Below are positions 34,094-56,435 of a stretch of DNA of 64,000 nucleotides, in pieces. The stretch comes from an uncultured Acidobacteriota bacterium (lineage in GTDB: Bacteria > Acidobacteriota > Thermoanaerobaculia > UBA5066), in contig CAVZYA010000003.1 of the NCBI GenBank assembly GCA_963779415.1, forward strand, positions 67,998 to 131,997, given 5' to 3'. Under the pieces are notes generated by a model, which was not told the DNA's origin, ran no database searches, and saw only the letters and a program-made list of their open reading frames with translations. A program made the translations under genes and the position numbers. Within the stretch, counting starts at the first letter, position 1. Each line of letters begins with the position of its first letter.

Positions 34094-35289
34094 CAGCCCG
34101 GCTTTCGGGCGCCTCCCGCGCCCGAAAGGGTGACCTTCGCTCCCGGCTGGAGCTTGTCGACCCCGTCCACCACGATGACGTCGCCGGCCGCGACGGGGCC
34201 GCGGATGGCCGTGTCGTCGCCCTCGGTCAGCTGCACGTCGACGTTCCGCATGTCGACGGTCCCGTCCTTCCGGACGACGTAGACGAACGCGCTCTGCGGG
34301 CTTCGCTGGAGGGCCGCGGTCGGGACGAGGGTGACGCCGCGCAGCGTGTCGACGAGGAGCCGCGCGTTCACGAACTGGTTCGGATAGAGCGCGAAGTCGT
34401 CGTTCGGGAAGAGGGCCTTGATCCGGACCGTCCCGGTGGTCGGATCGATCTGGTTGTCGACGGCCAGAAGCGATCCCAGAGCGAGCCTGTTCTTCAAGTC
34501 CCGATCCCAGGCCTCCACGGCGAGGCGTCGCCCGGCCCGCGTCTGCTCCAGAACTGCCGGGAGGCGGTCGGCCGGGATGGTGAAGACGACCGAGATCGGC
34601 TGAACCTGCGTCATGACGACGAGTCCGTTCGCGTCGGCGGCGTGCACCATGTTGCCCGCGTCCACGAGACGAAGGCCCACCCGCCCGGAGATCGGCGCCG
34701 TGATCCGGCTGTAGATCAGGTTCAGCTTCGCGCTCTCGACCTGCGCTTGATCGCTCTTGATGACGGCCTCGTCCTGGTCGACCGTCGCGACCTGGGTGTC
34801 GAGCTGCTGCTTCGGAATCGAGTCCTGCTCCATGAGCGTCTGGTAGCGCTTCAGGTCGATCCGGGCGTTTTCCAGGGCCGCCTGGTCCTTTGCCAACTGC
34901 CCTTCGGCCTGAAGGAGCTGGACCTGGAATGGGCGGGGATCGATCTCGGCGAGAAGATCGCCTTCGTGGACGATCTGCCCTTCCCGGTAGGCCACGGTGA
35001 TCAGTTGGCCGTCCACCCGGCTGCGGACGGTGACCGTGCTCAGGGGCGTCACGGTGCCAAGGCCGGAGACGTAGACGCCCAGGTCCCCCGTCCGCGCCGC
35101 GAGTCCGACGACGGGGATCTCCCGCGCCGCCGCGGACCGGCTCTTCGCCGCCTGGGCGTTGTTGGCACGCGAGAGAATCAGCCAGACGGCCACGGCGGCG
35201 ACCCCGGTGGCGGCCAGAAGCCAGCGCCAGAGGTGGCGCCGGGGCCTCCCTTCCGACGCATCCGAAGAGACGGGATTTTCGGAATTCAT
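34093..35289 (-). CDS. mdtA: RND efflux membrane fusion protein, MdtA-like
   Basis: 398-aa ORF with an N-terminal TM helix, ...VTVRSRVDGQLITVAYREGQIVHEGDLLAEIDPRPFQVQLLQAEGQLAKDQAAL..., and biotin-lipoyl, hairpin and beta-barrel domains. Confidence 0.88.
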   Translation of the reverse strand: MNSENPVSSDASEGRPRRHLWRWLLAATGVAAVAVWLILSRANNAQAAKSRSAAAREIPVVGLAARTGDLGVYVSGLGTVTPLSTVTVRSRVDGQLITVAYREGQIVHEGDLLAEIDPRPFQVQLLQAEGQLAKDQAALENARIDLKRYQTLMEQDSIPKQQLDTQVATVDQDEAVIKSDQAQVESAKLNLIYSRITAPISGRVGLRLVDAGNMVHAADANGLVVMTQVQPISVVFTIPADRLPAVLEQTRAGRRLAVEAWDRDLKNRLALGSLLAVDNQIDPTTGTVRIKALFPNDDFALYPNQFVNARLLVDTLRGVTLVPTAALQRSPQSAFVYVVRKDGTVDMRNVDVQLTEGDDTAIRGPVAAGDVIVVDGVDKLQPGAKVTLSGAGGARKPG

Positions 35290-35313
35290 GATTTCGAGCT
35301 CTCCGATCCGGAC

Positions 35314-35979
35314 TCAAATGATCCGGCGCTTGAGCGCCTTGCTGACGGCCGCCGACTTCGAGTTGACGTGCAGCTTCTCGTAGACCGAGCGGACGTGGTT
35401 TCGGATCGTGTTGATGCTGATCCCGAGGGCGTCCGCGGCCGTCTGATAGCTCGCCCCCTCGGCAAGGAGCTTCAGAAGACGGATCTCCTGGGGCGTCAAG
35501 TCGTGCTCCGGCTGCTTCGGCGGACCGATGTCGCGAAAGAGCTGGATGACTTTTCGCGCGATCTCGGGAGACATCGGCGAGCCCCCTCCGCGCACTTCGC
35601 GGATCGCGTCGAGGAGCTTCGCGGGGGGCGTCTTCTTCAGGAGATAGCCGGAGGCGCCGTTGCAGAGCGACTCGAAGATCTGCTCCTCGCCCTCGTAGAC
35701 GGAGAGCATCAGGACGGCGACGGAGGGAAACTCCTCCCGGACGGTCCGGACGGCTTCGGAGCCGGAGACCCCGGGAAGGTGGATGTCCATCAGAAGAACG
35801 TCCGGCGCCGTCTGCGGCTCGCCCCGGAGCTTGCGGAGCGCCTCCTCGGCGGACCCCCACGTCTCGGCGCAGAGGAACCCGCGCGTCCCGCCGATCAGGA
35901 GGCGGAGGCTCTCCCGCAGACCCGGATCGTCCTCGACGACCCCGACCCGGATGGCGGCCCCTTCGGGCTTCGCGCTCAT
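35314..35979 (-). CDS. Two-component response regulator, NarL/FixJ (LuxR HTH) family
   Basis: 221-aa ORF with a receiver domain (IRVGVVEDDPGLRE...LLMDIHLPGVSGSEA, phospho-acceptor Asp) and a C-terminal LuxR HTH (...LTPQEIRLLKLLAEGASYQTAADALGISINTIRNHV...). Confidence 0.88.
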   Translation of the reverse strand: MSAKPEGAAIRVGVVEDDPGLRESLRLLIGGTRGFLCAETWGSAEEALRKLRGEPQTAPDVLLMDIHLPGVSGSEAVRTVREEFPSVAVLMLSVYEGEEQIFESLCNGASGYLLKKTPPAKLLDAIREVRGGGSPMSPEIARKVIQLFRDIGPPKQPEHDLTPQEIRLLKLLAEGASYQTAADALGISINTIRNHVRSVYEKLHVNSKSAAVSKALKRRII

Positions 35980-36025
35980 GGCCTCCGGACTCTGCCCCCC
36001 GCCGCCCTTTCGCGGCAGAGCATGT

Positions 36026-39000
36026 TCATGTCAGGGGGTGGCTTCCGGAATGAGGAATCGAAACGCCGTCGAGGCGTATCGTCGTCCCCCGCTCCGGCGC
36101 GGAATGGACCTCCAGCCGGCCGCCGAGCGCCGACGCCCGCTCGGACATGTTCCCGAGCCCCCTTCCTTCCCCCTCCCGGTTCGCGTCCGGCACGGAGAAG
36201 CCGACCCCGTCGTCGCGAACTTCGACCTTCAAGGGCCCGCCCGGAGAGCGAAAAACGGGCCTCGAGGGTACGGGCCCGGGAATGCCTCGCCGCGTTCGTG
36301 ATCGCCTCCTTCAGAAGGAGGAAGAGATGCCGACGCGTCTCGGCCGGAAGCTCCACGGCCGAGGCCCCCTCCGGCAGGGTGAGGCGGAATTCGATTCCCC
36401 GCCCTTCGAGAAGATCCGAGGCGAAGAGGCGGAGCCGGTCGCCGAGGCTCTGGAGGTCGTCGCGCCGGGGGTCGATCGACCAGATCGCGTCGCCGAGGGC
36501 GTCGATCACGGAGCGGGAGGTCTCGCCGATCTGCTCGAAGAGGCGGGCGGAGTCGCTCCCCTCCTCGACCGCCCGGTGTCCGACCTCGGAGAGGATCGAG
36601 ATCCGGGCGAGGCTGGAGCCGACGTCGTCGTGAAGGTCGGTCGCGAGGCGGGTCCGGATTCTCTCGACCGCCACGGCGCGCTCGAGTCGCTGCCGGTGGA
36701 GGACGAAGACGGCGAGGACGACGGCGGCGGCGACCGAGACGAGAAACCAGCCACGTCGCCAGAGCGGCGGAAGGACCTGGAAACGGAACGCGGCCTCCTC
36801 TCCCGCCTCTCCTCCCGGCCCGACGGCGCGCACCGCGAACCCGTAGCGCCCCGGCGCCAGCCCCACGTACCGGATCGTCGGTTCGGGGCTCGGAGGGCTC
36901 CACGCGGCGTCGGCCCCCTCGAGGAACGTCTGGAACCGCACCCTTCCCCCCTGCGCGAACTGCGGGGCCGCAAAGTCGATCCGGAGTCGCGTCTCGTCCG
37001 GCGCGAGCGAGAGGCCGGGAAGCTCCCGCGCGCCGAGCTCGGGCACCGGGCGCGAATTGCCGTTCACGCGAACGGCCATGACGAGGGCGCGCGGCGGAGA
37101 CGCGGGCGGGTCGGGCACCGGGACGAGACGGGAGACCCCTTCGGGCGTCCCGAACCAGAGCGCGCCGTCCCGATCCTCGAGCGCGCAGGTCACGACGTTG
37201 TTCGCGAGCCCGTCGGCCGTCGAGAAGTGGCGGAACCGTCCGCTCTTCGGATCCAGCCGGTCCACGCCGCGCGCCGTCCCGAAATAGAGAAATCCCTGCC
37301 GGTCCGCGGCGACCGCGTAAACGCTGCCGGTGGCCGGCCCCTCGCTCGTCACGAGGCTCGTGGCGAGCGGGTGATCGGCCGCCGGAGCGTCGATCCGGAC
37401 GACCCCCGCGCTTCCGTTCGCCACCCAGAGGCGCCCGCGCCCGTCGAGGAAAAAATTCCGTGCGAGCCCCTCGGGGACCCCTTCCGCGGGCCCGAGTCGG
37501 AGGAAACTCCCGTCGCGCCGCCGGACGATCCCTCCGGAGCCGAAGGCGATCCAGAGATCCGCGCCGCTCTCGAGAAACGCGACCGGGGTCCCCGGCGGGA
37601 GGCCGTCCTTCGGGCCGAACGACTCGAAGCGGCCTTCGGCCCTGTCGAAGCGCGAAAGCGGTTCGGTCGCGTCGTAGAAGCCGATCCAGATGTCGCCGCG
37701 GGAGTCCTCGAAGAGCGCCGCGACGTCTCCCCCGCCGAGCCCGTCCCGCGCCGTGAGGAGGGCTTTCGGCCTGGCGCGCCCGAGATCCTCGAATGGGAGA
37801 GGTCCGTAGCGGGCGAGCCCCGACGGCATGGCGATCCACCAGTCGCCGCGACGGTCGCAAAGGACGGTGCGGCCCCAGAGGAGCCGGCTCGACGCCGGAG
37901 CTTCCGGCCGGAGAGGCACGGCATGGAATCGCGCCCCGTCGAAGCGGTAGAGGTTCGCGTTTCCGGCAGACGTCGCGACCGGATGGCCGCCCGGATCGAG
38001 AAAGAGTGACGTGATCCGCGGGTTCGAGAGGCCGTCGGCGTCGCCGAAACGCGTGAAGCCCGCGGACGAGAGGCGAAGGAGCCCGGTGCTCTGCGTTCCG
38101 ACCCAGACGTTTCCCGCGTCATCCTCGAGCAGCTCGCCGAGGATTCCGTCGCCGAGGCCGTTCCTCCGGGTGAACGTGGTCCGCCGTCCGCCGCCGAGAA
38201 CGATGAGGCCGGCCGTGGAGGAGACGAGGATCCGGCCGTCCTTCGTTTCGAGGAGGCGCTGGAAGAGGCCGCGCGGCTCCGACAGGGACGCGCTGAGGAT
38301 GGCAGCCTCGCCGGGCCCCGGGAGTCGAAGTATGCCGTCCGATCCGAGGAGGGGGCGCGCCGGAGGCATCGCGCCGCCCGGTTCCGGGGTGAAGACGGCA
38401 ACGAACTCCGGCGTCGCCGCCCAGAGGCGGCCCGACCGGTCGAGCAGCAGTCCGCGGACATCCCCGGGACCTCCGCCGGAGCCGAGCGTCACCCGCTCGA
38501 CCGGGAGGCCGCGGCGAATCCGGAAGAGACCCCGGGAAGTTCCGACCCAGAGGACGCCGTCTTCGGCATCCACGGCCACGCGGACGATCCCGACCCCGGG
38601 GGGAAGCCCGGCCGCGAGCGCCTCTTTCCCCGAGATCCGATAGAGCTCACCGCCGCTTCCGAACCAGACCTCTCCGTTTCGGTCGACGAAGACGAACTCC
38701 ACGGACCGACCTCCGGCCTTCGCCGGGTCCGCGGGAAGGAAGACCGGACGCTCCGACGTGTGCGACGGGTCGAGGCGGACGAGTCCGCCGCCCGTCGCGA
38801 CCCACACGGTCCCGTCCCGCCCTTCCGCGAGCGCCCAGACGCGAAGTTTAGGAAGGCCGTCCTCGAGGCCGTAGACCTTGAACCGCTCGCCGTCGAAGCG
38901 GGAGAGCCCGTTCAGCGAGCCGGCCCAGAGGTAGCCGCGCGAGTCGCGGAGGAGCGCCGTGACGGTCTCCTCCGCGAGCCCCTCGGCCACGCCGTGGCGC

Positions 39001-39092
39001 TGCACCGGCAGCTGCTCCGCACGCACGACCATGGGAATGAGGAGACCCAGGATGGCGGGAATGCCGAGCCGCCGGGCGATCGCGGGCCACAT
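36026..39092 (-). pseudogene. Sensor histidine kinase with a very large periplasmic beta-propeller (two-component regulator propeller / Y_Y_Y-like). There is a single frame change near the C-terminus, about 36235.
   Basis: About 760 aa of repeated ...DG.LW.GT..GL.R.. propeller blades, a TM helix (FLVSVAAAVVLAVFVL), then HisKA_3 (TRLATDLHDDVGSSLARISILSEVG) and the HATPase start. The true C-terminus MKVEVRDDGVGFSVPDANREGEGRGLGNMSERASALGGRLEVHSAPERGTTIRL lies in the adjacent frame (36026..36232). Confidence 0.75.
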
Positions 39093-39131
39093 GGAGCGAT
39101 GTTACGGGAGGACGATGTCGGAAAATGCCCC

Positions 39132-41804
39132 TTACTTCTGGAGTTCCGGTTTCCAGTTCAGAACCACCGTGATCGGCGTCGAGCTCCCCTCGGCGAGCGT
39201 GTTGATCAAGAACGTCCGTCCGTCGGGGGAAACGTCGTACGCCGTCCCCGTGTATCGCGAACGGGTCTCGAAGAGCGGCCGGGGCGCCGAGCCCCCGAGG
39301 GTCTCCCCCGGACCGATCTCCACCGACGTGAGCTTCCTGTCCCGTGCGAGAAAGAAGAGCTCCTTCCCGTCGCGCCCCCACCTCGGCTGGCCGCCTCCTT
39401 CCGAGGAGACCTGCCACTTCCCTCCGGGACCCGGGAAGGGGACGACGTAGACCTCGTCCCGGCCGGTTTCGTCCGAGGCGTAGGCCATCCAGCGTCCGTC
39501 CGGCGAGAACCGGCCTCCCGTCTCGTTCGCCTCCGAACGGAGAAACGGCGTCGCCCGGCGATCTCCCGCGAGGGGCAGGACCCAGAGATCCCACTTCGTC
39601 CTCGGGTTCAGACTCTGAAACGCCAGAAGGCGCCCGTCGGGCGACCAGTCCGTCGGCCAGGCGAGCTCGCCCGATTTCAGGAGCAGCTCGTCGGCGCCGA
39701 CACCGCTCGCTGCGATCAGGTGGAACTCCGAGGCCCGGCCGATGTCCGATTCGTAGGCGATCCTCCCTCCGTCCGGAGACCAGATCGGCGTGTGCTGGAA
39801 GGAGCCGGCGAAGGTGAGCTGCCGGAAGACGCTCTGCGGCGACTCGACGACCCAGATGCTCGAACCCCCCGTCTCGTGATTGATCCTCATGGCCGCCGCA
39901 CGCCGGCCGTCCGGGGAAAGGACGGGGTCTTCGTAGTCGTCCGGCGGGCCCCCGACGCCGGCCGCCTTACCGCTCCGGTCGTACCATGCGAGCTGCGAGA
40001 CCGCCGACGACGCTCCGGCCTGATAGGCGACCGTGCCCCCCCCCACTGAAAAGACGGCGCTCGAGGTATTCAGGTAGTTCTGGACGTTCGACGCGACGGG
40101 CCGATCCTCTCCCGTGAACTCCAGGCGCTTCGCGTCAAAGGGCGCCGCCACCAGGATCCCTTCCTTCACCAGGAGGACGTATCCCGGCAGGGTGTAGGCG
40201 ACGCTCGAGTTGGCGCGCCGGAGCATTTTCAAGGCCCCGCTCTCGAGCGACCCGACCCAGAGCGCGTTTTCCGGGTTGTCCCGCCTCGCCACCGAGCTCC
40301 TGGCGAGAAAGAGAAAGTGGTGGCCGTCGGGCAGGAAGACAGGCCATCGATGGGTCCCTTCCTGCCGCGACTCGTCGAGCTTCGTGACGGCCACCGGCGT
40401 CCCCCCGGCCGCGGAGACCCTGGAGAGCGAATCGTACGGTCCCGGGGCGAAGACGATCACCCCCTCGCGGTTCCACGTTCCCCCCCTCGCCATGGGCGCG
40501 TCGCACAGAGATTGCGCGACGCCGCCGGCAGAGGGGATCTTCTTCAGCCTTCCATCTGCGAAGAACCCGATGAATGCGCCGTCGGGCGACCAGAACGGGT
40601 AGGACGCGCCGTCGGTCCCCGAGAGCGCCTGCGCGGAGAGGGCATCGAGCCGGCGAAGGAAGAGAAGCTTGCGACCTACGGGCGTCGTGGCGACGAAGGC
40701 CACGCGGCTCCCGTCGGGAGAAACGGCGAGCGGGCCGGCGTCGCGGCCGATGAAGTTGAAGCTGCAGCCGTCCGGCGGCGGGATGGAGAAGCGGACGACA
40801 CGGGGAGTGGTCGCCGGGGAGCGCAGCAGCAGAAAGGCGAGGAGTCCCCCCAGGAGAACGACCGCGGCTCCCCAGGCGAGTCTCTCGGCCCGGTGGCGAG
40901 GCGCGGTCGGGAGGGCCTTGCCCTCGGAGAATCCCCCCTCGAGAATGCCCGCGATCTGAAGCCTGACATCGTGCGCCGTCTGCCAGCGCTCCTCCGGATT
41001 CTTGGCGAGGCAGGCTTTCACGAGGCGGTCGAGAGGCGGCGGCGCCAGAGGCCGGATTGCGGAGACGGGCGGAGGGTTCGCGGTCAGGATCGCGGCGGTA
41101 ATGGCCGCAGGACTCTTCCCTTCGAAGGCCTTCCGCCCGGTCGCCATCTCGAAGAGAACCGCGCCGAATGCGAAGAGGTCGCTCCTCGCGTCGGCTTCTT
41201 TCCCTTCGAGCTGCTCCGGCGACATGTACTGGATGGTTCCGACGACGACGCCGCTCGCGGTCAGCGGGGCCGCGGCGGGGGCTTCGGTGGGGCCGGAGGT
41301 CAGATCCACGGGCGGGCCTTCCGTGGGCGCGCCGGCCTTGGCCAGGCCGAAGTCGAGCAGCTTGACGCCGGAGCGCGTCAGGACGATGTTGCCCGGCTTC
41401 AGATCGCGATGAACGATTCCGGACCTGTGCGCGGCCTCGAGGCCCGAGGCGATCTCCGACGCGATCCGGAGGAGCTCGTCGAGAGGGAGAGACCCTTTCG
41501 CGATCCGCTCGGCGAGCGTCGCCCCCTCCAGATACTCCATGACGAGGTAATCGGTCTCGTCGTGCCGTCCCACGTCGTACAGGGCGCAGACGTGAGGATG
41601 GGACAGCGACGCGATCGCCCGGGCCTCCCGCTCGAATCTCAGGCGGCTCTCCGGGTTCTCGGCGAATCGAGCCGGGAGGACCTTGAGGGCGACGATCCGG
41701 CCGAGGCGCGTGTCCTTCGCCTTGTAGACCTCTCCCATCCCGCCCGCGCCGATCGGAGCGACGACTTCATACGAACCGAGTCGGACGCCGGACGCGAGAG
41801 TCAT
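39132..41804 (-). CDS. Hanks-type Ser/Thr protein kinase fused to a C-terminal TolB-like (WD40/PD40) beta-propeller
   Basis: 890-aa intact ORF. It has a kinase domain (GAGGMGEVYKAKD...ALKVLP...HRDLKPGNIVL...DFGLAK), one TM helix (AWGAAVVLLGGLLAFLLL) and about 500 aa of ...SPDG.R.AF... PD40 repeats. Confidence 0.88.
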   Translation of the reverse strand: MTLASGVRLGSYEVVAPIGAGGMGEVYKAKDTRLGRIVALKVLPARFAENPESRLRFEREARAIASLSHPHVCALYDVGRHDETDYLVMEYLEGATLAERIAKGSLPLDELLRIASEIASGLEAAHRSGIVHRDLKPGNIVLTRSGVKLLDFGLAKAGAPTEGPPVDLTSGPTEAPAAAPLTASGVVVGTIQYMSPEQLEGKEADARSDLFAFGAVLFEMATGRKAFEGKSPAAITAAILTANPPPVSAIRPLAPPPLDRLVKACLAKNPEERWQTAHDVRLQIAGILEGGFSEGKALPTAPRHRAERLAWGAAVVLLGGLLAFLLLRSPATTPRVVRFSIPPPDGCSFNFIGRDAGPLAVSPDGSRVAFVATTPVGRKLLFLRRLDALSAQALSGTDGASYPFWSPDGAFIGFFADGRLKKIPSAGGVAQSLCDAPMARGGTWNREGVIVFAPGPYDSLSRVSAAGGTPVAVTKLDESRQEGTHRWPVFLPDGHHFLFLARSSVARRDNPENALWVGSLESGALKMLRRANSSVAYTLPGYVLLVKEGILVAAPFDAKRLEFTGEDRPVASNVQNYLNTSSAVFSVGGGTVAYQAGASSAVSQLAWYDRSGKAAGVGGPPDDYEDPVLSPDGRRAAAMRINHETGGSSIWVVESPQSVFRQLTFAGSFQHTPIWSPDGGRIAYESDIGRASEFHLIAASGVGADELLLKSGELAWPTDWSPDGRLLAFQSLNPRTKWDLWVLPLAGDRRATPFLRSEANETGGRFSPDGRWMAYASDETGRDEVYVVPFPGPGGKWQVSSEGGGQPRWGRDGKELFFLARDRKLTSVEIGPGETLGGSAPRPLFETRSRYTGTAYDVSPDGRTFLINTLAEGSSTPITVVLNWKPELQK

Positions 41805-42370
41805 TTCGCCGGCGGGGCCGGTGGCTCGTACTTCAGGACGGCGTTACGGACCGTAGGGACCGTCTTCAGATAGGCGAAGAGAGCCTTGAGGTCCTCATCC
41901 GTCGCTTGTCCATAAGCCTGCCACGGCATCGGCGGCTGAATCTCCCGCGAGGAGCCGACGTGCTTGCCGGTCCTCATCGCGCGGAGGAACATCTCCTCGG
42001 TCCAGACGCCGATCCCGGTCGCCTTGTCCGAGGTGAGGTTGATCGCGTACGTGACGCCCCACGGCCCGGAGAACGCCGTGTTCGTCGCCGCGCCGGACCA
42101 GATCCAGGGTCCGACGGGCGAGGGCGCCGCCGGCATCTTCAGATCCTGCGGGTGACCCGAGAGGAGCTTCGCGGCGTCGGGTTCGGGCCCTTTCGGCCCC
42201 ATCTTCATCGGCGTGTGGCAGTCCCCGCAGTCGAGGATCGTGGCGAGGTACTTCCCGCGCGTCACCCGCGACTCCCCGGCGGGCGGGGCGCCAGCCGAGA
42301 GGGCCGCACCGAACCCGAAGAGGAGGGCCGCAAGCGCCATTCCTCCGATCGGACGGAAGGTCTTCTTCAT
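41801..42370 (-). CDS. Secreted mono-heme c-type cytochrome
   Basis: 189 aa with a signal peptide MKKTFRPIGGMALAALLFGFGAALSAGA and a single CGDCH heme-binding motif. Its stop overlaps the kinase start by 4 nt. Confidence 0.75.
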   Translation of the reverse strand: MKKTFRPIGGMALAALLFGFGAALSAGAPPAGESRVTRGKYLATILDCGDCHTPMKMGPKGPEPDAAKLLSGHPQDLKMPAAPSPVGPWIWSGAATNTAFSGPWGVTYAINLTSDKATGIGVWTEEMFLRAMRTGKHVGSSREIQPPMPWQAYGQATDEDLKALFAYLKTVPTVRNAVLKYEPPAPPAK

Positions 42371-42506
42371 GGATTGATTCTCCTTCTCGCAGTCGGTTCT
42401 TCGCGGAGTCTACGCCATCGAGTCGGCAATCCTCGTCGTCACGGTTCTCTTCTAGATCCGGCGCCTCCCCGCTTGAGCCTGGCGTCCGATGCGAATGAAG
42501 GAAGAA

Positions 42507-42531
42507 GGATGCAAGCAGAATGCTTGCATCC
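42507..42531. promoter_or_regulatory. Perfect 10-bp inverted repeat, GGATGCAAGC-agaat-GCTTGCATCC, likely the operator of the RHH antitoxin
   Basis: Seen directly about 37 nt upstream of the vapB-like ATG, followed by a GGAGGG ribosome-binding site. It lies in the divergent intergenic region shared with the cytochrome c gene. Confidence 0.55.
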
Positions 42532-42567
42532 TGACTCCTTCCGGCCTACTCTTTCATCGGAGGGCGG

Positions 42568-42825
42568 ATGTCGACGCTCCACGTACGGAACGTTCCAGAG
42601 ACGCTTCATGAGAGGCTGCAAGCGCTGGCCCGGGCCGATGGGCGCTCGCTGAATGCCCAGGTTCTGACGCTTCTCGCGCGGTCTGTCCGCGAATCCCAAT
42701 CGGTGCCTGGCGTCGTGGAGATCCTCGCGAGGGCACGACAGATCCGCGGCCGCAAGCCGGCTCGTCGGCGCGGCCCGTCCAGCCTCACCCTTCTCCGCGA
42801 CGGGAGACGGGAACGAGGGCGCTGA
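42568..42825 (+). CDS. vapB: Ribbon-helix-helix antitoxin (FitA/VapB-like, Arc/MetJ family)
   Basis: 85 aa MSTLHVRNVPETLHERLQALARADGRSLNAQVLTLLARSVRE, matching the classic FitA-like N-terminal RHH pattern. Confidence 0.75.
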   Translation: MSTLHVRNVPETLHERLQALARADGRSLNAQVLTLLARSVRESQSVPGVVEILARARQIRGRKPARRRGPSSLTLLRDGRRERGR

Positions 42826-43268
42826 TCCGCCCTCCCCGCTCGTTCGTCGTCGACGCGAGCGTCGCCGTCAAACTCTTCATTGAGGAAGCGGGCTCCGCCC
42901 AGGCCGAGGCGCTCTTCGCGACCCTCGCCGGGACGGAGGCGACTGTCATGGCCGCGCCCGATCTCCTCTTCCCCGAGTGCGCGAACGTCTTTCGGAGTCG
43001 GGTTCTCCGGCGGCTGATGTCCGCTGAGGCCGCGCGGGAGGCCTTCCGAGCGCTCCGATCGCTTCCGATCCAAGTCGTCCCACTCCTCGAAATCTCCGAG
43101 GACGCGCTGGACCTTGCGCTTCGATACGACCTGTCCGTCTACGACGGTTGTTATTCCGCGCTCTCCGCGCGGCTCGATGTTCCGCTCGTCACGGCCGACC
43201 GGCGGCTCTTGAAGAAGCTGGCCCGTACCGGCGTGCGAACGATCCATCTGGAGTCGATGGCGACCTGA
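42822..43268 (+). CDS. vapC: PIN-domain toxin (VapC-like), probably with a non-ATG (CTG) start overlapping the antitoxin stop
   Basis: The open frame from 42612 reads ...LIRPPRSFVVDASVAVKLFIEEAGSAQAEALFATL...MAAPDLLFPEC...DLALRYDLSVYDGCYSALSARLDVPLVTADRRLLK. The PIN acidic residues (D in FVVDAS, E, D) are present. The ATG-only ORF (42948..43268) would lack the catalytic N-terminus. Confidence 0.6.
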   Translation: MIRPPRSFVVDASVAVKLFIEEAGSAQAEALFATLAGTEATVMAAPDLLFPECANVFRSRVLRRLMSAEAAREAFRALRSLPIQVVPLLEISEDALDLALRYDLSVYDGCYSALSARLDVPLVTADRRLLKKLARTGVRTIHLESMAT

Positions 43269-43284
43269 CCGGCGGCGGAATCTG

Positions 43285-45321
43285 TCAGCGTGCTTTCCCG
43301 GCTTCCTTCGCCTTCCACTCCGGGCGCTCGTCCCAGCCGAGCCGGTGTGCCGTCTCCTCGTTGATCGTTCCGTCCTCGTTGAGAGTGCCGTTGGCCTTCA
43401 GGCGGCGGACGCTCTCGGCAGGGAGTCCTTTCGCAAATGTGTCGTCCTTCGAGCGGGGCACGAACATCTGGTTCTCGACGATAGGCTGATGATCCGCGAA
43501 GGCTTTTCGAACTCCGTTGACCATGTAGTCGAACTCCACGTCCGCCGACCCCTTGATGACGATCCGGTTCAGGTCCTTGCTCACGCAGGCAAGAACAGCA
43601 AGGTCACCACTGGGAAGGGCCTGTATCGTCAACCCGCTGGCGCTCGTGACCATCCGGAAGTCCTCGGGCACCTCGATCGTCGCGAAGCCGCCGACGATCC
43701 GCGCCGTGCCGCGGAAGTACGTTCCCGCCTCGGGTCCTTCGAGGCAGACGTATCGGATCTCCTTGGTCGGGTCGGTCGGATGCGGCTCGACGAAGTACTT
43801 CGCTCCGTCACCCAGGAAGGCGCCGTGGGAAAAGACGCCGTATCCCGGTCCGCCGAGGTATCCAATCGTCCCGCCGGCGGCATGTCCAATGACGCCCGCG
43901 GCATTACCACCGTATGTGGATCCCTCGATGGCGTTGTTCACGTCGCTCGATGCAAAGATGCCACGCCCAGAACTGGACTGCGCATCCACACCATCGCCGG
44001 AGCCCGAATAGGCCGAGACTCCGGGCCCGTTTGTCGATCTTCCCAAGACACCGGCGTCGCCCGTGCCCGTTACGACCCCGTACACACCATAGCCAGTGCC
44101 GCCGAGATAGCCGTCGTTGTTGGTGGCGGTGCTGTGCCCGTGGACTCCGAAACCGTTATTGATCTGCGTGATCCCGGAAACCCCGGCGTAGCTTCCACCT
44201 CCGGTGGACGTGCCGACGACGACATCGGCGCCGGCCGCCGTCAGGCTCAGGGGCACCGCGACCGACAGCTTCGATCCCGACGTCCCGTTGCCGACGAGGG
44301 TGCCGTCGTGCGCTACCGCCGTCAGGCCTCCTCCCCCGCCCCCGGCGGCGTCGATCGTGATCGTGTTGCCTACCTGGCTGACCGTCGTGTTCACCCCCGC
44401 GGCGATCGTGACGGCGCCCGTGAGCCCGTTCAGGCTCGCCACGCCGGCACCGAGCAGGCTGTCCTTGAAGCTCATCTCGAATCCCGCCGCATCGTTCGAG
44501 CCGGGGACGGCCGTCGTCCCGGCCACCTGGGTTCCGTAAAGAAGGACCTTGCCCGCCCCGGCGAGCACCTCCGCCAGGAGAATCGCGTTCGTCGTCGAGA
44601 TCGCCGGCGAGAAGCCCGCAAACGCATTCACCTGCCGCGCCTCGAAGGCCCCCAGGTCGTATTGCTGAACCCCGAGGCTGGCGCCGGTTGCGTCCTTCAC
44701 GGTCACTCTCACCGACACCGGATGACCCGTCGTCTCCACGAGACCGAAGTTGTAGCGGTAATTCTCCAGGGGACCGTTCGTGATCCCCTGCAGCCGCGAC
44801 ACGTCACCGGCTCCGAGGGCAAAGGTGGCGGGAATCCCCGAGAAGAAGAGCGCCTTGACGTCCTTCAGCTCCGTGCCGGGCGGCTGGTCGTACGTCCTCG
44901 ACGAGACGAAGACCTCCTGGTCCGAGACGACGTGCAACGCTCCGCCCCCGGACTCCCCGAGGTACGTCACGACGTCGTCGATACGCTGCGTGGCCCCCGC
45001 CGCGATCACCTCCGTCTTCGTCGTCGGAGCGGGGTTCGTCTGACCCTGCCGGAGGAACTGGATCGTCACGTTCGCCGGAGCACCGCCCAGGTTCGTCACC
45101 CAGAGCGTGGAGTAGAACTGGCTGCCGCCAGTCCCGGGGGTCCGGGCCGTCGCCGGGATGAAGACGTTCGTCCCGGCGAAACCCGCCTGAAGACGGGTCG
45201 CGAACAGAATGAGAACGAGCAAAGCGGACAGCCGGCACACGCAGCGAGAAATCATCGAAGTCTCCTTGTTGAGACAGGATATCAACCAGAGGCTTCGTTC
45301 ACCAGTCCCGGGACTGGTCAC
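43285..45321 (-). CDS. Secreted uncharacterized protein, paralog A. Conserved N-terminal domain, hypervariable Gly/Tyr/Ser-rich centre, conserved C-terminal domain.
   Basis: 678 aa. Signal peptide MISRCVCRLSALLVLILFATRLQAGFAG; an N-terminal domain of about 360 aa; a centre ...GFGVHGHSTATNNDGYLGGTGYGVYGVVTGTGDAGVLG...; then C-terminal GTIGYLGGPGYGVFSHGAFLGDGAKYFVEPHPTDPTKEIRYVCLEGPEAGTYFRGT...SVRRLKANGTLNEDGTINEETAHRLGWDERPEWKAKEAG. An AAGGAGA ribosome-binding site lies upstream. Confidence 0.75.
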   Translation of the reverse strand: MTSPGTGERSLWLISCLNKETSMISRCVCRLSALLVLILFATRLQAGFAGTNVFIPATARTPGTGGSQFYSTLWVTNLGGAPANVTIQFLRQGQTNPAPTTKTEVIAAGATQRIDDVVTYLGESGGGALHVVSDQEVFVSSRTYDQPPGTELKDVKALFFSGIPATFALGAGDVSRLQGITNGPLENYRYNFGLVETTGHPVSVRVTVKDATGASLGVQQYDLGAFEARQVNAFAGFSPAISTTNAILLAEVLAGAGKVLLYGTQVAGTTAVPGSNDAAGFEMSFKDSLLGAGVASLNGLTGAVTIAAGVNTTVSQVGNTITIDAAGGGGGGLTAVAHDGTLVGNGTSGSKLSVAVPLSLTAAGADVVVGTSTGGGSYAGVSGITQINNGFGVHGHSTATNNDGYLGGTGYGVYGVVTGTGDAGVLGRSTNGPGVSAYSGSGDGVDAQSSSGRGIFASSDVNNAIEGSTYGGNAAGVIGHAAGGTIGYLGGPGYGVFSHGAFLGDGAKYFVEPHPTDPTKEIRYVCLEGPEAGTYFRGTARIVGGFATIEVPEDFRMVTSASGLTIQALPSGDLAVLACVSKDLNRIVIKGSADVEFDYMVNGVRKAFADHQPIVENQMFVPRSKDDTFAKGLPAESVRRLKANGTLNEDGTINEETAHRLGWDERPEWKAKEAGKAR
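44200..45300. repeat. Direct repeat copy 1 (about 1.1 kb, near-identical to 46480..47545): the N-terminal-domain coding region plus 5' leader of the paralog genes
   Basis: The antisense ORFs 44204..44539 and 46486..46824 translate to identical 100+ aa strings, and the upstream leaders share TGTTGATAT[C/T]CTGTC[T/G]CAACAAGG. Confidence 0.7.
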
Positions 45322-45377
45322 GGGTGATCCTCGTCCCCCGCCACGACGTGATCCGAGAGGGATCTACGGAGGGATTC

Positions 45378-47540
45378 TCAGCGAGTTGGTCCGGCTTCCT
45401 TCGCCTTCCACTCCGGCCGTTCGTCCCAGCCGAGCCGGTGCGCCGTCTCCTCGTTGATCGTCCCGTCCTCGTTCAGGGTGCCGTTGGCCTTCAGGCGGCG
45501 GACGCTCTCCGCAGGGAGCGCCTTCGCGAACGTGTCGTCCTTCGAGCGCGGCACGAACATCTGGTTTTCGACGATCGGCTGGTGATCCGCGAAGGCCTGC
45601 CGGACGCCGTTGACCATGTAGTCGAACGCCACGTCCTTCGACCCCTTGATGACGATCCGGTTCAGGTCCTTGCTCACGCAGGCCAGCATCGCAAGGTCGC
45701 CGTTCGGCGTGACCTGCACCGTCAGCCCGCTTTCGCTCGTGACGATCCGGAAGTCCTCGGGCACCTCGATCGTCGCGACTCCGCCGACGATCTTCGCCGT
45801 GCCGCGGAAGTACGTCCCCGCTTCGGGTCCCTCGAGGCAGACGTACCGGATCTCCTTCGTCGGGTCCGTCGGATGCGGCTCGACGAAGTATTTCGCCCCG
45901 TCGCCGAGGAAGGCGCCGTGGGAGAAGACGCCGTAACCCGGACCGCCGAGGTATCCGATCGTCCCGGCGGCCGCGTACCCGGCGACACCGGCGGCAGTAC
46001 TCCCTTCCGTCGAGCCCTCGATGCCGTTGTTGTGCACGCTGAACGCAGCGACGCCGCGGCCCTGTTGAGAAGACGCCTGGATGGCATCACCCGCCAAGGT
46101 GCTCCCGTAGACGCCGACGCCGGTGCCAGATCCTACCCCTTCTATCGCGACGCCGCCGTTATCGCTCATTCCAACGACGCCCGCGTAGGCATGGCCAAGG
46201 TACCCGTCCGTGTTCGCGTAGTTGTTGTGTCCGTGAACTCCCGAGGAAAACTCGCCATTCGTCTGGCCATAGATCCCGTCGCCACTACTCGACTGGCCGT
46301 AGACGCCTTTGCCACTGCCGGCCTGGCCCATCACCCCGTTGCCGCTGGCGTCCGTCGCGACACCGTAGACACCGTAGTCGTTTCCCCCGAGGTACCCGTC
46401 GGTGTTGTTGTTGTTGCTGTGCCCGTGGACGCCGAAGCCGCTGTTGCTCTGGGTCACCCCGTAGAAGCCGGCGACGCTGGCGAAATTGCCCGTCGTCGCG
46501 GTGACCACGTCGGCACCTTGGGCGCTGAGGGTCAGGGGCACCGCGACCGACAGCTTCGATCCCGACGTCCCGTTGCCGACGAGGGTGCCGTCGTGCGCTA
46601 CCGCCGTCAGGCCTCCTCCCCCGCCCCCGGCGGCGTCGATCGTGATCGTGTTGCCTACCTGGCTGACCGTCGTGTTCACCCCCGCGGCGATCGTGACGGC
46701 GCCCGTGAGCCCGTTCAGGCTCGCCACGCCGGCACCGAGCAGGCTGTCCTTGAAGCTCATCTCGAATCCCGCCGCATCGTTCGAGCCGGGGACGGCCGTC
46801 GTCCCGGCCACCTGGGTTCCGTAAAGAAGGACCTTGCCCGCCCCGGCGAGCACCTCCGCCAGGAGAATCGCGTTCGTCGTCGAGATCGCCGGCGAGAAGC
46901 CCGCAAACGCATTCACCTGCCGCGCCTCGAAGGCCCCCAGGTCGTATTGCTGAACCCCGAGGCTGGCGCCGGTTGCGTCCTTCACGGTCACTCTCACCGA
47001 CACCGGATGACCCGTCGTCTCCACGAGACCGAAGTTGTAGCGGTAATTCTCCAGGGGACCGTTCGTGATCCCCTGCAGCCGCGACACGTCACCGGCTCCG
47101 AGGGCAAAGGCGGCGGGAATCCCCGAGAAGAAGAGCGCCTTGACGTCCTTCAGCTCCGTGCCGGGCGGCTGGTCGTAGGTCCTCGACGAGACGAAGACCT
47201 CCTGGTCCGAGACGACGTGCAGCGCTCCGCCCCCGGACTCCCCGAGGTACGTCACGACGTCGTCGATCCGCCGCGTGGCCCCCGCCGCGATCACCTCCGT
47301 CTTCGTCGTCGGGGCGGGGTTCGTCTGCCCCTGCCGGAGGAACTGGATCGTCACGTTCGCCGGCGCGCCGCCCAGATTCGTCACCCAGAACGTGGAGTAG
47401 AACTGGCTTCCGCCGGAGCCGGGGGTCCGGGCCGTCGCCGGGATGAAGACGTTCGTCCCGGCGAAACCGGCCTCAAGGCGGCTCGTGAAAAGAACGAAGA
47501 CGAGCAGAGCGGACAGCCGGCACGCGCAGCGAGAAGATCA
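45378..47540 (-). CDS. Secreted uncharacterized protein, paralog B (tandem duplicate of A). A 1-nt indel inside the signal-peptide codons separates the ATG near 47540 from the main frame (tracked ORF 45378..47384).
   Basis: The main frame is near-identical to paralog A over the N-terminal domain. The centre differs in length and sequence (GVHGHSNNNNTDGYLGGNDYGVYGVATDASGNGVMGQAGSGKGVYGQSSSGDGIYGQTNGEFSSGVHGHNNYANTDGYLGHAYAGVVGMSDNGGVAIEGVGSGTGVGVYGS...). The C-terminal domain is about 90 % identical. Confidence 0.7.
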
Positions 47541-47545
47541 TCGAT
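46480..47545. repeat. Direct repeat copy 2 (pairs with 44200..45300)
   Basis: Same as above. Confidence 0.7.
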
Positions 47546-47621
47546 TCCCCCTTGTTGCGACAGAATATCAACAGGAGTCCTCCGTCACCAGCCACGCCGG
47601 CGAGTCAATGGCGCTCAGTCC

Positions 47622-47651
47622 GAAAAGGAAAAGGGCCGGCTTGCGCCGGCC
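47622..47651 (-). terminator. Intrinsic terminator downstream of rpoC: GGCCGGC-gcaa-GCCGGCC stem followed by a U-rich tract (minus strand)
   Basis: The minus strand reads GGCCGGCgcaaGCCGGCCcttttccttttcgg, about 60 nt after the rpoC stop. It is preceded (47671-47698) by a second perfect 12-bp palindrome, GGGGGAAACCCG-gttg-CGGGTTTCCCCC. Confidence 0.65.
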
Positions 47652-47711
47652 TCATGGAAGAACGATCGGCGGGGGAAACCCGGTTGCGGGTTTCCCCCGG
47701 GCCCCCTTCCG

Positions 47712-50700
47712 CTAGACTTCGTCGTCCAGCTCCGCCGCGATGACGGGAGTCTCGTCGTCGAAGAAGATCTCCTCGGCCTCCTCGGGCAGGGCGGGAAGCT
47801 CCTCGCGCTCGAGGACGATGTTGCGGTAGTAGTCCATGCCGGTGCCGGCCGGGATGAGCCGCCCGACGATGACGTTCTCCTTCAGCCCGCGGAGAGTGTC
47901 GAGCCGTCCCGCGATCGAGGCCTCCGTCAGGACGCGCGTCGTCTCCTGGAACGAGGCCGCGGAGACCCACGAGTCGGTCGAGAGCGACGCCTTGGTGATG
48001 CCGAGGAGGAGCGGCCGCCCCTGCGCCGCGCGGCCGCCGGCCGCCACGATCCGCTCGTTCTCCTCGTTGAACCGGAAGCGGTCCACCTGCTCGTCCACGA
48101 GGAACTCGGTGTCGCCCACCTCCTCGATCCGGACGCTCCGCATCATCTGGCGGACGATGACCTCGATGTGCTTGTCGTTGATGCCGACTCCCTGCGAGCG
48201 GTAGACCTCCTGGATCTTGTCGGTCATGTACCGCTGCAGCTCCTTCTCGCCCTTGACGGCGAGGATGTCGTGCGGCGAAGGATCGCCCTCGGTCAGCGGG
48301 TCGCCCGCCTCCACGTGCTCGCCGTCCTGCACCATGACGTGCGCGGCGCGCGGGATCAGGACCTCGCGCTTCTGCCCGTCCTCGGACTCGACGATGAGCT
48401 TCTGCTGCCCCTTGACCGATCCGCCGTGCTGGACGACGCCGGAGATCTCCGTGATGACGGCCGGCTCCTTCGGACGCCGGGCCTCGAACAGCTCGACGAC
48501 GCGCGGAAGGCCGCCGACGATGTCGCGGGTCCGCTTCTTCTCGACCGGCTTCTTCGCGAGCGCGTCGCCCGGGTTGACCGAGTCGCCCTCGGCGCCCATC
48601 AGGTGCGAGGGGATCGGGAGCGGGTACTTCTTCTCGGCCCCGTCCTTGCCGGTCACGACGATCATCGGGGCGCGCTTCTCGGAGGTCCCCGTCGTCTCGA
48701 CGACGATCTTCTGCGTGAGGCCCGTGACCTTGTCGGTCTCCTCGCGCAGGTTCTCCCCCTCGACGATGTCCTTGTACGAGATGACGCCGGCGATCTCGGA
48801 GAGAATCGGCGAGGCGAACGGGTCCCACGTCACGAGGAGCTGGCCCGGCTTGACCTCGTCTCCGTCCTGGATCCGGAGGACGGAGCCGTATGCGAGCGAG
48901 TAGCGCTCCTTCTCGCGCCCCTTGGCGTCGAGGACGACGAGCTTCCCGTTCCGGTTGACGACGACCTCGGCCCCGTCCTTCTTCCGGACGGTCGTGTGGC
49001 TGAGGAGCCTGGCGATGCCGGGGTTCTTCGCGAGGTGGCGGGCCGACTCGGAGACGCGGGCCGTGCCGCCGTAGTGGAACGTCCGCATCGTGAGCTGGGT
49101 GCCCGGCTCGCCGATCGACTGGGCGGCGATGACGCCGACAGCTTCGCCGATGTCGACGAGCTCGCCCGTCGCGAGGTTCCGGCCGTAGCACTTCTGGCAG
49201 ACGCCGCGCCGCGTCTCGCAGGTGAGGACCGAGCGGATCTTGACCCGCTCGATGCCCGCCTCCTGGATCTGGCCGGCGATCTCCTCCGTGATGGTCTCGT
49301 TCGCGGCGACGATCTCCTCGTCCGAGGCCGGGTCCACGACGTCGTCCTGCACGATCCGGCCGACGATCCGGTCGCGCAGGGACTCGAGGATCTCGCCCCC
49401 TTCCACGATCGCCGAGACGACGATGCCGTCGATCGTCCCGCAGTCCGGCTCCGTGATGATGACGTCCTGCGCGACGTCGACGAGACGGCGCGTGAGGTAG
49501 CCGGAGTCGGCCGTCTTCAGCGCCGTGTCGGCGAGGCCCTTGCGGGCGCCGTGCGTCGAGATGAAGTACTCGAGGACGGTGAGCCCCTCGCGGAAGTTCG
49601 AGATGATGGGCTGCTCCATGACCTCGCCGGACGGCTTGGACATGGGGCCGCGCATGCCGGCCAGCTGCCGGACCTGCTCCTTCGAGCCCCGGGCGCCCGA
49701 GTCGGCCATCATGAAGATCGGGTTGAACTCGTGCCCCCCCTTCCCGTCGGAGGTCTTCATCTCCTTGAACATCTCTTCGGAGACGGCTTCGGTGGCGCGG
49801 TGCCAGATGTCGATGATCTTGTTGTGGCGCTCGCCGTCCGTGATGGCCCCCTGCTGGCGCTGCGTCTCGACCTCGAGGACGTCCTTCCGCGACTTGGCGA
49901 CGATGTCCGCCTTCTTCCCGGGGATCCGCATGTCCTCGACGCCGATGGAGATTCCGGCGCTCGTCGCGGCCGCAAAGCCCAGCTTCTTGACGATGTCGAG
50001 GATCTCGACCGTCCGCGGAAGCCCGAGATTCACGAAGCAGTAGTTGACGAGGTCCTGGAGCCCCTTCTTCTTGAGCGTCCCGTTCAGGAACGGAAGATCC
50101 GGCGGCAGGGCGGCGGACATGAGCACCCGCCCGACGGTCGTCTCGATCCGCGTGTTCACGCAGTCGATCGGGTCCGTATGCACGATGTCCTGGTCGTTGA
50201 GGACCTGGCTCTCGAGGTCGACGAGCCGTCCCGTGAAGCGGACGGAGATGCCGGCGTGCGTGTCGACCTCGCCCGCGTCGTGGGCGAGTGCGACCTCGTC
50301 GAAGCTTCCGAAGACGCGCCCTTCGCCCTTGCAGCCGTCCTTGCGGCGGGTCAGGTAGTAGAGACCGAGGACGAGGTCCTGCGACGGCACCGCGAGCGGC
50401 TTTCCGTGCGCCGGCGAGAGGATGTTGTGGGCCGAGAGCATCAGAACCTGCGCCTCGACCTGCGCTTTCGGCGAGAGCGGGACGTGGACGGCCATCTGGT
50501 CGCCGTCGAAGTCCGCATTGAACGCCGCGCAGACGAGCGGGTGGATCTTGATCGCCTTCCCTTCGATGAGGACCGGCTCGAAGGCCTGGATGCCGAGGCG
50601 GTGGAGCGTCGGCGCGCGGTTCAGGAGGACCGGGTGCTCCTTGATGACCTCCTCGAGCGCGTCCCACACCTCGTTCGGCGCCTGCTCGACGAGCTCCTTC

Positions 50701-51935
50701 GACGCCTTGATCGTCGTCGTGAGCCCCTTCTGCTCGAGCCGGTGGTAGATGAACGGCTTGAAGAGCTCGAGGGCCATCTTCTTCGGGAGGCCGCACTGGT
50801 GGAGCTTCAGCTCCGGCCCGACGACGATGACCGACCGGCCCGAGTAGTCGACGCGCTTGCCGAGGAGGTTCTGCCGGAAGCGGCCCGATTTCCCCTTGAG
50901 CGTGTCGGAGAGGGACTTCAGCGGGCGGTTGTTCGAGCCCTTCAGGACGCGGCCGCGGCGGCCGTTGTCGAAGAGGGCGTCGACCGCCTCCTGGAGCATC
51001 CGCTTCTCGTTCCGGACGATGACCTCCGGGGCGCGCAACTCGAGGAGCTTCTTCAGCCGGTTGTTCCGGTTGATGACGCGCCGGTAGAGGTCGTTCAGGT
51101 CGGAGGTCGCGAACCGGCCGCCGTCGAGGGGAACGAGCGGGCGGAGCTCCGGCGGGATGACCGGAATGACGTTCAGGATCATCCACTCGGGGCGGTGGCC
51201 CGAGCGGCGGAACGCGTCGACGACCTTCAGGCGCTTGGCGGCCTTGAGCCGTTTCAGCGCCGAGGTCTCCGTCTTCATGACGAGGCGAAGCTCTTCCGCG
51301 AGGTCGTCGACGTTGACCCGCTGGAGCAGCTCCTGGATCGCCTCGGCGCCCATCTTCGCGACGAACGTGTCGACGCCGTGCTTGGCCTTCAGCTCGCGGT
51401 ACCGCTCCTCGGTGACGAGGCTCTTCTCCTGGAGGTTCTCCTCCTCGGCGAGCGGGCCCGGGTCGATGACCACGTACTGCTCGAAGTAGAGGATCCGCTC
51501 GAGGTCGCGCAGCGTCAGGTCGAGGAGGTGGCCGATCCGGGACGGAAGCCCCTTGAAGAACCAGACGTGGGAGACCGGCGCGGCCAGCTCGATGTGCCCC
51601 ATCCGCTCGCGGCGGACCTTGGACTTCGTCACCTCGACGCCGCACTTGTCGCAGACGACGCCGCGGTGCTTCATCCGCTTGTACTTGCCGCAGAGGCATT
51701 CCCAGTCGGTGATCGGGCCGAAGATCTTGGCGCAGAAGAGGCCGTCGCGCTCCGGCTTGAAGGTCCGGTAGTTGATCGTCTCCGGCTTCGTCACCTCGCC
51801 GAAGGACCAGGAGCGGATCTTCTCGGGGCTGGCCAGGGCGATCTTGATCGCGTTGAAGTCACGGGGGCCCGGCGAGCGGAAGGGGGACGGGGATCCGCCC
51901 GGGGCGTACGCGGAGGACGGGTTGAACGTGTCCAT
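47712..51935 (-). CDS. rpoC: DNA-directed RNA polymerase beta' subunit
   Basis: 1407-aa intact [16 protein letters not shown]...[47 protein letters not shown]..., with a zinc-binding motif and NADFDGD. Confidence 0.97.
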
Positions 51936-51950
51936 CGTTTTCGTCTCTCC

Positions 51951-56225
<4,275 letters not shown>

Positions 56226-56311
56226 CTAGTTAGGTCCTTGCTGCCGCCGGCGTCTCGACGTCGAGTGCCGGTGGCGGTATCAAGCGAGCCGGAGCGTGAC
56301 TGTTCATGGTC

Positions 56312-56363
56312 GGGGGGTGCGAGGCTCTTCCCCTCAACGGGTTTCGCCGGGTTCGCACCCCCC
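56312..56363 (-). promoter_or_regulatory. Long GC hairpin in the rplL-rpoB spacer (11-12 bp stem GGGGGGTGCGA...TCGCACCCCCC with a large loop), a candidate attenuator
   Basis: Seen in sequence, in the 210-nt spacer between the rplL stop and the rpoB start. A partial terminator at this position is well known in other bacteria. Confidence 0.4.
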
Positions 56364-56435
56364 GAGCCCCCCTGACCCTCTCTCGATGAATCGCGGGGAT
56401 GGCGAAAAGACGCCGATTCACCCAGCTGCAATGCC

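Follow-up and report, generated by a model that had tools for sequence, protein, structure and literature searches.

Two neighbouring tail-fibre-like genes beside rpoC in an uncultured acidobacterium probably belong to a lineage-specific family of exported fibre proteins

The superfamily of mosaic adhesive trimers (MAT) of Bdellovibrio bacteriovorus groups proteins which carry a signal peptide followed by an invariant N-terminal domain and which form trimeric, surface-displayed fibres (Caulton et al. 2024, PMC10769870). Their tips are exchanged C-termini, either an S74 chaperone or other beta-sandwich or lectin folds, and have relatives among phage tail fibres. Their N-terminal domain, of about 130 aa and rich in beta structure, was reported to be without homologue in the PDB (PMC10769870). 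A second point of reference is the ASRT/TM1070 (ASRAH) superfamily, for which sugar binding has been proposed and which includes cell-surface versions (De Souza, Iyer & Aravind 2009, PMC2739507). Here we describe two adjacent genes, A and B, from a 64-kb window (the whole stretch of DNA that was analysed) of an uncultured member of the Acidobacteriota. We think it probable that A and B are paralogues from a multi-copy family of tail-fibre-like proteins, exported by Sec and specific to the Thermoanaerobaculia/Holophagales lineage, and that they act through the fibre mechanism proposed below. MAT fibres would be their closest characterised analogue, without our claiming membership of MAT. All data, from the window as well as from its relatives, are metagenome-assembled contigs.

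The two genes follow directly after rpoC (47712–51935), B first and then A, both on the minus strand. Gene A (43285–45255), the short-stalk or A-type paralogue, was delimited from its open reading frame (ORF) and start context. It begins with an ATG at 45255 preceded by an AAGGAG ribosome-binding site (RBS) and encodes 656 aa, 100% identical to database protein P0001. Gene B (45378–47541), the long-stalk or B-type paralogue, starts at an ATG at 47541 and carries one extra nucleotide at 47536. In the alignment, a leader of about 50 nt with its RBS is present twice, before A (45256–45305, minus strand, up to the edge of a BLAST block at 45305) and, as its counterpart, before B (47542–47591, minus strand). 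The original prediction had already described two adjacent minus-strand paralogues of secreted type with a common signal peptide, duplicated leaders including the RBS, a 1-nt indel near the start of B, an adjoining and convergent vapBC module and a family that could not be named. All of this is borne out, and the prediction was largely correct overall, its overstatements being an identity over 1.1 kb and a centre said to differ completely between the copies.

Each protein would consist of five parts: a cleavable signal peptide, an N-domain of about 250 aa, a shaft resembling that of a phage spike, a Gly-rich repeat stalk and a tip homologous to phage tail proteins. The signal peptide of A (MISRCVCRLSALLVLILFATRLQA | GFAGT; 45184–45255, minus strand) reads as a Sec/signal peptidase I type. 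Among some 60 N-termini of the family examined by eye, most have a basic start, a hydrophobic core and a boundary of the form A-x-A | G-F-x-G-T, a few start calls being unclear; the N-terminal signal peptide typical of MAT proteins can therefore be read in A and in most of these sequences. The constant N-domain comes next (A, residues 25–275, 44431–45183; B, 46716–47468, offset by 2285 nt; both minus strand) and is 98% identical in amino acids between A and B. Its structural model is all-beta (predicted local distance difference test, pLDDT, 90; predicted template-modelling score, pTM, 0.88) and has a clear TM1070/ASRT-like match in the PDB, which predicts an ASRT-like beta-sandwich fold. Pfam and NCBIfam searches with A and B gave no real match, and none at all in Pfam at E<=1, the ASRT family included. 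Unlike ASRT/TM1070 (ASRAH) proteins, this domain is twice the size, and no internal duplication was detected in it by hhalign. Neither a scan of IMG/VR with an N-domain pattern nor a search of the phage collection recovered it, and BFVD gave generic beta-sandwich matches only (template-modelling, TM, score <0.3). The shaft segment of A (SLNGLTGAVTIAAGVNTTVSQVGNTITI followed by a GGGGGG run; 44221–44430, minus strand) was assigned from the sole match, a marginal one, of the family profile to PDB sequences, namely the shaft of the trimeric spike of PR772 (PRD1-like; 6q5u_O, E 9e-4).

At the other end, the tips of A (43288–43824) and B (45381–45917), both on the minus strand, are 92% identical in amino acids and 87% in nucleotides. 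In its model (pLDDT 89.5), this 'FVEPHPTDP'-type domain forms a beta-sandwich to which a short helical tail is attached, and it resembles phage tailspike and R-pyocin fibre tips (7eea, 6cu2/6cl6, 4mtm) and H-type lectins. With tblastn, relatives were found in hypothetical proteins of Synechococcus myophages (about 30–35% identity, E ~1e-6) and at the C-terminal end of gp19, the last minor tail protein of Arthrobacter phage Mufasa8. The domain also matches PHROGs 17490 and 28536. Moreover, the 'EPHP' tip is homologous to a second tip common in the family, 'FKIDHPLDP...ESPDMMNIYNG' ('KIDHP'; hhalign 97%, E 7e-11), which itself matches a PHROG 'tail protein' family. The distal domain is thus homologous to phage receptor-binding tips, and the link to tail fibres suspected in the original prediction holds. 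An IMG/VR scan with a C-domain pattern recovered no relatives.

The same cannot be said of the resemblance to the S74 intramolecular chaperone which had been suggested for the C-terminus. Neither A nor B is hit by PF13884 at E<=1, whereas the positive control P0079 is matched at 1e-11. The spacing of 'SVRRLK' is that of the S74 Ser-Lys dyad (SDxxxK), but its Ser and Lys fall outside the columns conserved at >=90% and are replaced in many homologues (e.g. RRLVANG, EIQRRLVATG), and just about 40 residues lie C-terminal to the motif in A and B. The tip with its helical tail also occurs in short proteins of 180–310 aa that are devoid of the N-domain (P0272, P0276, P0292 and P0303). Some of these carry a signal peptide of their own together with a short stretch rich in Gly, and one is from the gammaproteobacterium Dokdonella soli. 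Since it is found in such stand-alone proteins, the tip is probably a mobile, independently folding module.

A search with the N-domain yielded 2419 representatives of 50%-identity clusters at E<=1e-3, 341 of them at E<=1e-30. The domain is nearly always located at residues ~25–270, straight behind the signal peptide. Across 120 homologues, conservation proceeds domain by domain and the C-termini are alternatives to one another. Ten of 64 representatives end in Peptidase_S74, which is also present in P0079, and others carry collagen, Kelch or NHL sequences; at the level of the family, therefore, both S74 and non-S74 tips are present as in MAT, A and B themselves being of the non-S74 kind. Many members match tail-fibre, tailspike or baseplate PHROGs. 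In the species genomes of GTDB, 71 of the 72 loci are in Acidobacteriota metagenome-assembled genomes (MAGs) of the Thermoanaerobaculia/Holophagales, the exception being binned as Acidithiobacillales. There are several loci per genome. One chromosome of 3.84 Mb has eight, and seven family ORFs are spread over the three of these loci that show more than one. At least two family ORFs are present in 22 of 67 loci, some of them being fragments from frameshifted assemblies. In neighbouring paralogues the N-domains are typically 80–100% identical in amino acids, the stalks and tips 10–40% or of other types. No neighbouring gene, whether for a secretion system, a chaperone or a phage function, is conserved across the 72 loci. 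The duplicated leader was considered as a regulatory element of the whole family and rejected, as it is confined to the orthologous locus in close relatives and does not precede other paralogues. By sequence comparison, the N-domain defines a large and unannotated family, multi-copy and often in tandem in MAGs of the Thermoanaerobaculia/Holophagales, with exchanged phage-like tips.

These properties invite comparison with MAT. Both groups are chromosomal and multi-copy, both have a signal peptide directly before a constant beta-rich N-domain, and both combine a long repeat fibre with exchanged C-terminal tips that have phage tail-fibre relatives. They differ in phylum, the lineage of A and B having no known predatory lifestyle, and in length, A and B being ~650–720 aa compared with ~1000 aa. 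The N-domain of A and B, at ~250 aa and with a TM1070/ASRT-like match in the PDB, seems distinct from that of MAT in its size and in its description. In addition, surface display has been demonstrated for MAT, whereas A and B are known from genes and monomer domain models. By analogy with phage fibres and MAT, the proteins would trimerise into fibres. The constant N-domain would hold the fibre on a component of the cell's own envelope, plausibly a glycan because of the ASRT-like fold, while the tip would bind an external ligand and the number of stalk repeats would set the reach. From this we infer a function as surface adhesin or recognition fibre. The position of the locus beside housekeeping genes in three genomes, the lack of conserved neighbours and the absence of the N-domain from the viral sets argue that the proteins are cellular and not viral.

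The same domains could also be read differently, A and B being soluble secreted lectins or bacteriocin-like recognition factors that are not anchored to the cell, with the N-domain as an effector or sugar-binding part. ASRT-like folds have been proposed to bind sugar (PMC2739507), the tip is similar to H-type lectins and to the fibre tips of pyocins and is found in short secreted proteins without the N-domain, and the sequences of A and B show no anchoring motif of the lipobox, beta-barrel or sorting-signal kind. However, A and B match no family of toxins or enzymes, and the conservation and homogenisation of the N-domain, combined with the exchange of tips, better fit a common docking function. 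We regard this alternative as unlikely.

The homogenisation is best seen in the comparison of A with B. The proteins are 80% identical (BLASTP), all 66 gap positions falling inside the Gly-rich centre. At the DNA level there are two blocks, the first of 1245 nt and 92.3% identity (44067–45305 and 46352–47591) and the second of 654 nt and 87.2% identity (43285–43938 and 45378–46031). Within the first lies a perfect tract of 579 nt (A, 44247–44825; B, 46532–47110; minus strand), so that the '~1.1 kb essentially identical' of the original prediction is reduced to this tract for its perfect part, while the similar 5′ block, of about 1.24 kb at ~92%, is real. A perfect run of this length would arise by chance with P ~1e-21 at 8% background divergence. 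On its upstream side identity is lost little by little, passing from 98% to 92% and on to 87% through the signal peptide and leader. At 44246, the 3′ edge of the tract and the start of the stalk, it breaks off abruptly.

Synonymous (dS) and non-synonymous (dN) divergence was calculated from codon alignments with the orthologues of two related MAGs, L001 and L003. For the N-domain, dS is 0.016 between A and B of the window, 0.30 between A and the B-type orthologue of L003, and 0.80–0.88 between A and the A-type orthologues of L003 and L001. The 579-nt tract is 97.6% identical to the B gene of a sister strain (L078) and 88% to B-type orthologues, compared with 77–80% to A-type orthologues, while the centre of A groups with the A-type orthologues (82–85% in nucleotides). 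This shows a recent gene conversion, within this genome, in which the N-domain of B overwrote that of A. The conversion between copies that had been predicted is thus well supported by the dS values, the tract identities and the 579-nt run. In the C-domain, the paralogues of this genome are as close (dS 0.41) as orthologues are between genomes (0.46–0.60), which suggests that older exchanges took place there as well. In every region dN/dS is 0.07–0.36, which indicates purifying selection throughout. The perfect tract, its sharp 3′ edge and a dS of 0.016 as opposed to 0.8–0.9 to the true orthologues recall the concerted evolution of tandem paralogues. In contrast to pilE/pilS and vls cassettes, which generate diversity, conversion between A and B homogenises the constant domain and does not diversify the centre.

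The centre itself is a stalk of short repeats, counted by splitting at a G[VIA]x[GA] motif. That of A (43825–44220, minus strand) has ~9 units of 10–12 aa with the pattern GVxGxSxxGx, some being of 20–22 aa and containing DGYLGG. That of B (45918–46505, minus strand) has ~11–12 units and, in pairwise alignments, is longer by ~63–66 residues. B includes a diverged repeat pair 192 nt apart (46195–46241 and 46387–46433, 79% identical), which suggests that the additional length came from an internal duplication of a 64-aa block. The two centres do not differ completely in composition, as had been stated: the type of repeat is the same, Gly makes up 29% in A and 26% in B, and amino acid identity between them is 42%. 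In a small sample of 3–5 orthologues from different strains, the A-type centres (P0001, P0002, P0003) are 84–91% identical among themselves in amino acids, the B-type centres (B, P0004, P0005) 58–71%, and A-type and B-type centres ~40% identical to each other. The ratio dN/dS of the centre is 0.17 in A-type and 0.36 in B-type orthologue pairs. Since two centre types are kept among orthologues, with dN/dS of 0.17–0.36, the centres are long-standing, paralogue-specific stalks, the longer B-type drifting faster through changes in its repeats.

This bears on the model put forward in the original prediction, a variation system whose conserved flanks would direct the exchange of a hypervariable centre for antigenic or receptor variation. 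Conserved flanks do enclose a divergent, repeat-rich centre, conversion between the copies does occur, the B-type centre diverges faster between strains than its flanks, and the arrangement of the locus varies among strains that are 95–97% identical. Yet the aligned strains reveal two conserved types rather than a hypervariable or diversifying centre, the A-type centre being as conserved as the rest of its gene. The dN/dS values are those of constraint, and the conversion tract homogenises the N-domain and stops exactly at the edge of the centre. There is also no sign of the single expression site with silent, partial donor cassettes on which such systems are built, as both genes are full-length with their own leader and RBS. 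The 64-kb window holds no further copies, fragments, silent cassettes or template repeats of A and B and no reverse transcriptase, and a mechanism like that of diversity-generating retroelements, relying on a template repeat, was ruled out as no other copies are present in it. A cassette of this sort is very unlikely here.

The reading frame of B and the variability of the site raise the matter of assembly. The extra nucleotide at 47536 comes after codon 2, and the frame opened by the ATG at 47541 reaches a TGA after 22 codons. The main frame of B (45378–47537), shifted by +1 relative to this ATG, is free of stops over 719 codons and has no ATG, GTG or TTG ahead of a GTG at 47384. The closest orthologues, from sister strains, keep the frame here (ATGTTTTCTCGC and ATGATCTCTCGC, compared with ATGATCTTCTCGC in the window). 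Comparison with its orthologue indicates that B has been subject to purifying selection (dN/dS 0.19–0.36), and the frameshift therefore either arose very recently or is a mistake of the assembly.

Related genomes illustrate how the site varies. In L001 and L003, fibre genes likewise come just after rpoC and are followed by SQS_PSY, DXS and the str operon. In three related genomes, rpoC and housekeeping genes thus enclose the locus. A sample containing strains 95–97% identical to the window, compared at 33000–52000, provided two further contigs (L078 and L079; ENA ERZ25039477). The order in L078 is rpoC, B and a kinase, without A. In L079, the 3′ half of B is followed by cytochrome c, then by the kinase and after it by another gene of B-type (P0004). 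Such arrangements suggest that the fibre paralogues mediated rearrangements. They argue for a plastic site, which fits recombination among paralogues and speaks against a simple duplication in the assembly.

A metagenome assembly artefact, affecting either the tandem duplication or the 579-nt tract together with the B frameshift, is nonetheless the obvious caution with data drawn from MAG contigs. The related long-read assemblies are full of frameshifts, the contig of the sister strain L078 holds only B at this site, and the 1-nt insertion in B is missing from its closest orthologues. Several observations make such an artefact highly improbable, however. Leader, signal peptide and C-domain differ by 8–13% between the copies and the centres are not the same, so that a single gene, collapsed or duplicated, does not explain them. 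A-type and B-type paralogues are both found near rpoC in an independent MAG, rpoB and rpoC are intact in the window, and many genomes contain tandem pairs whose N-domains have been homogenised.

Finally, A and B could be the tail fibres that serve a prophage, tailocin or contractile injection system with its genes elsewhere in the genome, the N-domain being a baseplate adaptor. This would account for the homology of tips and shafts to phage tail proteins and for the constant N-terminus and variable C-terminus typical of receptor-binding proteins, but is extremely unlikely given that phage and tailocin fibres assemble in the cytoplasm whereas nearly all members here have a Sec-type signal peptide, that the locus, between rpoC and vapBC or housekeeping genes, has no phage genes around it in the window and the 72 loci have no conserved neighbours, and that the N-domain is missing from the viral collections, with only generic BFVD matches. 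What A and B have in common with phage tail fibres and tailspikes, R-type pyocins and Mufasa8 gp19 is the tip; they differ from them by the addition of a Sec signal peptide, by a non-viral N-domain and by their genomic context.

The surroundings of the pair have several features of their own. Between rpoC and B there is a terminator-like hairpin with a T-run (47634–47651, minus strand), identified by match to a consensus only, which would imply that B and A are expressed from their own promoter or promoters. A promoter scan found nothing, and an Rfam search of 42000–48000 gave no match. A second strong hairpin (47670–47700, minus strand; GGGGGAAACCCG-CAAC-CGGGTTTCCCCC) is located directly past the rpoC stop, upstream of the terminator-like one at 47651–47634. 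On the plus strand, a mechanically called ORF of 3683 aa (45324–56375) runs antisense to B, rpoC and rpoB; we took it as a shadow ORF of high-GC DNA and not as a gene.

On the other side, vapBC is convergent with A and ends 16 nt from the stop of A. It consists of a FitA-like ribbon-helix-helix gene (vapB, 42568–42825) and a PIN-domain gene (VapC, ~42822–43268, plus strand), the frame of which is open from the overlap with the vapB stop. This overlap is CTGA, the usual form being ATGA. There is no ATG, GTG or TTG before 42948, and the conserved N-terminal PIN motif 'VVDASV' is upstream of the mechanically called ORF. The PIN gene thus appears to start at the CTG of the overlap, or else its start codon is mutated.

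Beyond vapBC, the window and its relatives diverge in gene content. In L001 and L003, a gene of 77 aa, SQS_PSY, DXS and rpsL follow within ~0.3 kb of the fibre gene, whereas in the window ~25 kb (about 17853–43285) separate A from SQS_PSY (16933–17853). This stretch includes vapBC, cytochrome c, a Ser/Thr kinase whose counterpart in L079 has PD40/Tricorn-type repeat matches, a 1038-aa ORF which aligns to a histidine-kinase gene in L078, a counterpart of a response regulator, and resistance-nodulation-division (RND) efflux genes. Within this lineage, the interval from rpoBC to str is a variable island. Beside the fibre genes, L001 (8101–9873, minus strand) and L003 (12266–14038, minus strand) have a 590-aa gene which is missing from the window and has only weak esterase/tannase-like Pfam matches (E ~5e-4). 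In the long-read contigs L003 and L078, the calls of rpoB, rpoC and DXS–rpsL are fragmented, pointing to many indel errors, and gene lengths and family 'fragments' from such assemblies are to be read with caution.

Several points weigh against the interpretation of A and B as exported fibres. As assembled, B is without a usable start and signal peptide, and only A may be functional in this genome. It is by analogy with known fibres that trimerisation, passage across the outer membrane, a surface location and the binding of a ligand are assigned to A and B. No partner for secretion or assembly is conserved beside the family genes at the 72 loci. The N-domain could be the binding or sensing part instead of the anchor, and the perfection of the 579-nt tract could have been sharpened in part by assembly or polishing.

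The analysis nevertheless defines an unannotated domain family, a marker of chromosomal, secreted, phage-fibre-like proteins in a major, though little-studied, lineage of soil and sediment. Its genes need no longer be annotated as hypothetical proteins or prophage fibres, and the tips are candidate glycan-binding modules. The pair also provides a clean natural case of gene conversion holding a putative docking domain constant as the receptor-binding modules become more diverse. The 'chimeric fibre' strategy of adhesion known from Bdellovibrio would appear to occur more widely, possibly with more than one origin. A more ambitious proposal, which we advance tentatively, is that the Thermoanaerobaculia/Holophagales maintain large self-encoded repertoires of Sec-exported fibres, built from an undescribed sugar-binding-like anchor and tips captured from phage receptor-binding proteins, in which conversion holds the anchor constant and the tips and lengths of stalk are shuffled, the MAT strategy having been invented independently. 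If so, this mostly uncultured lineage would engage in contact-dependent recognition of other cells, for adhesion, predation, kin recognition or the decoying of phages.

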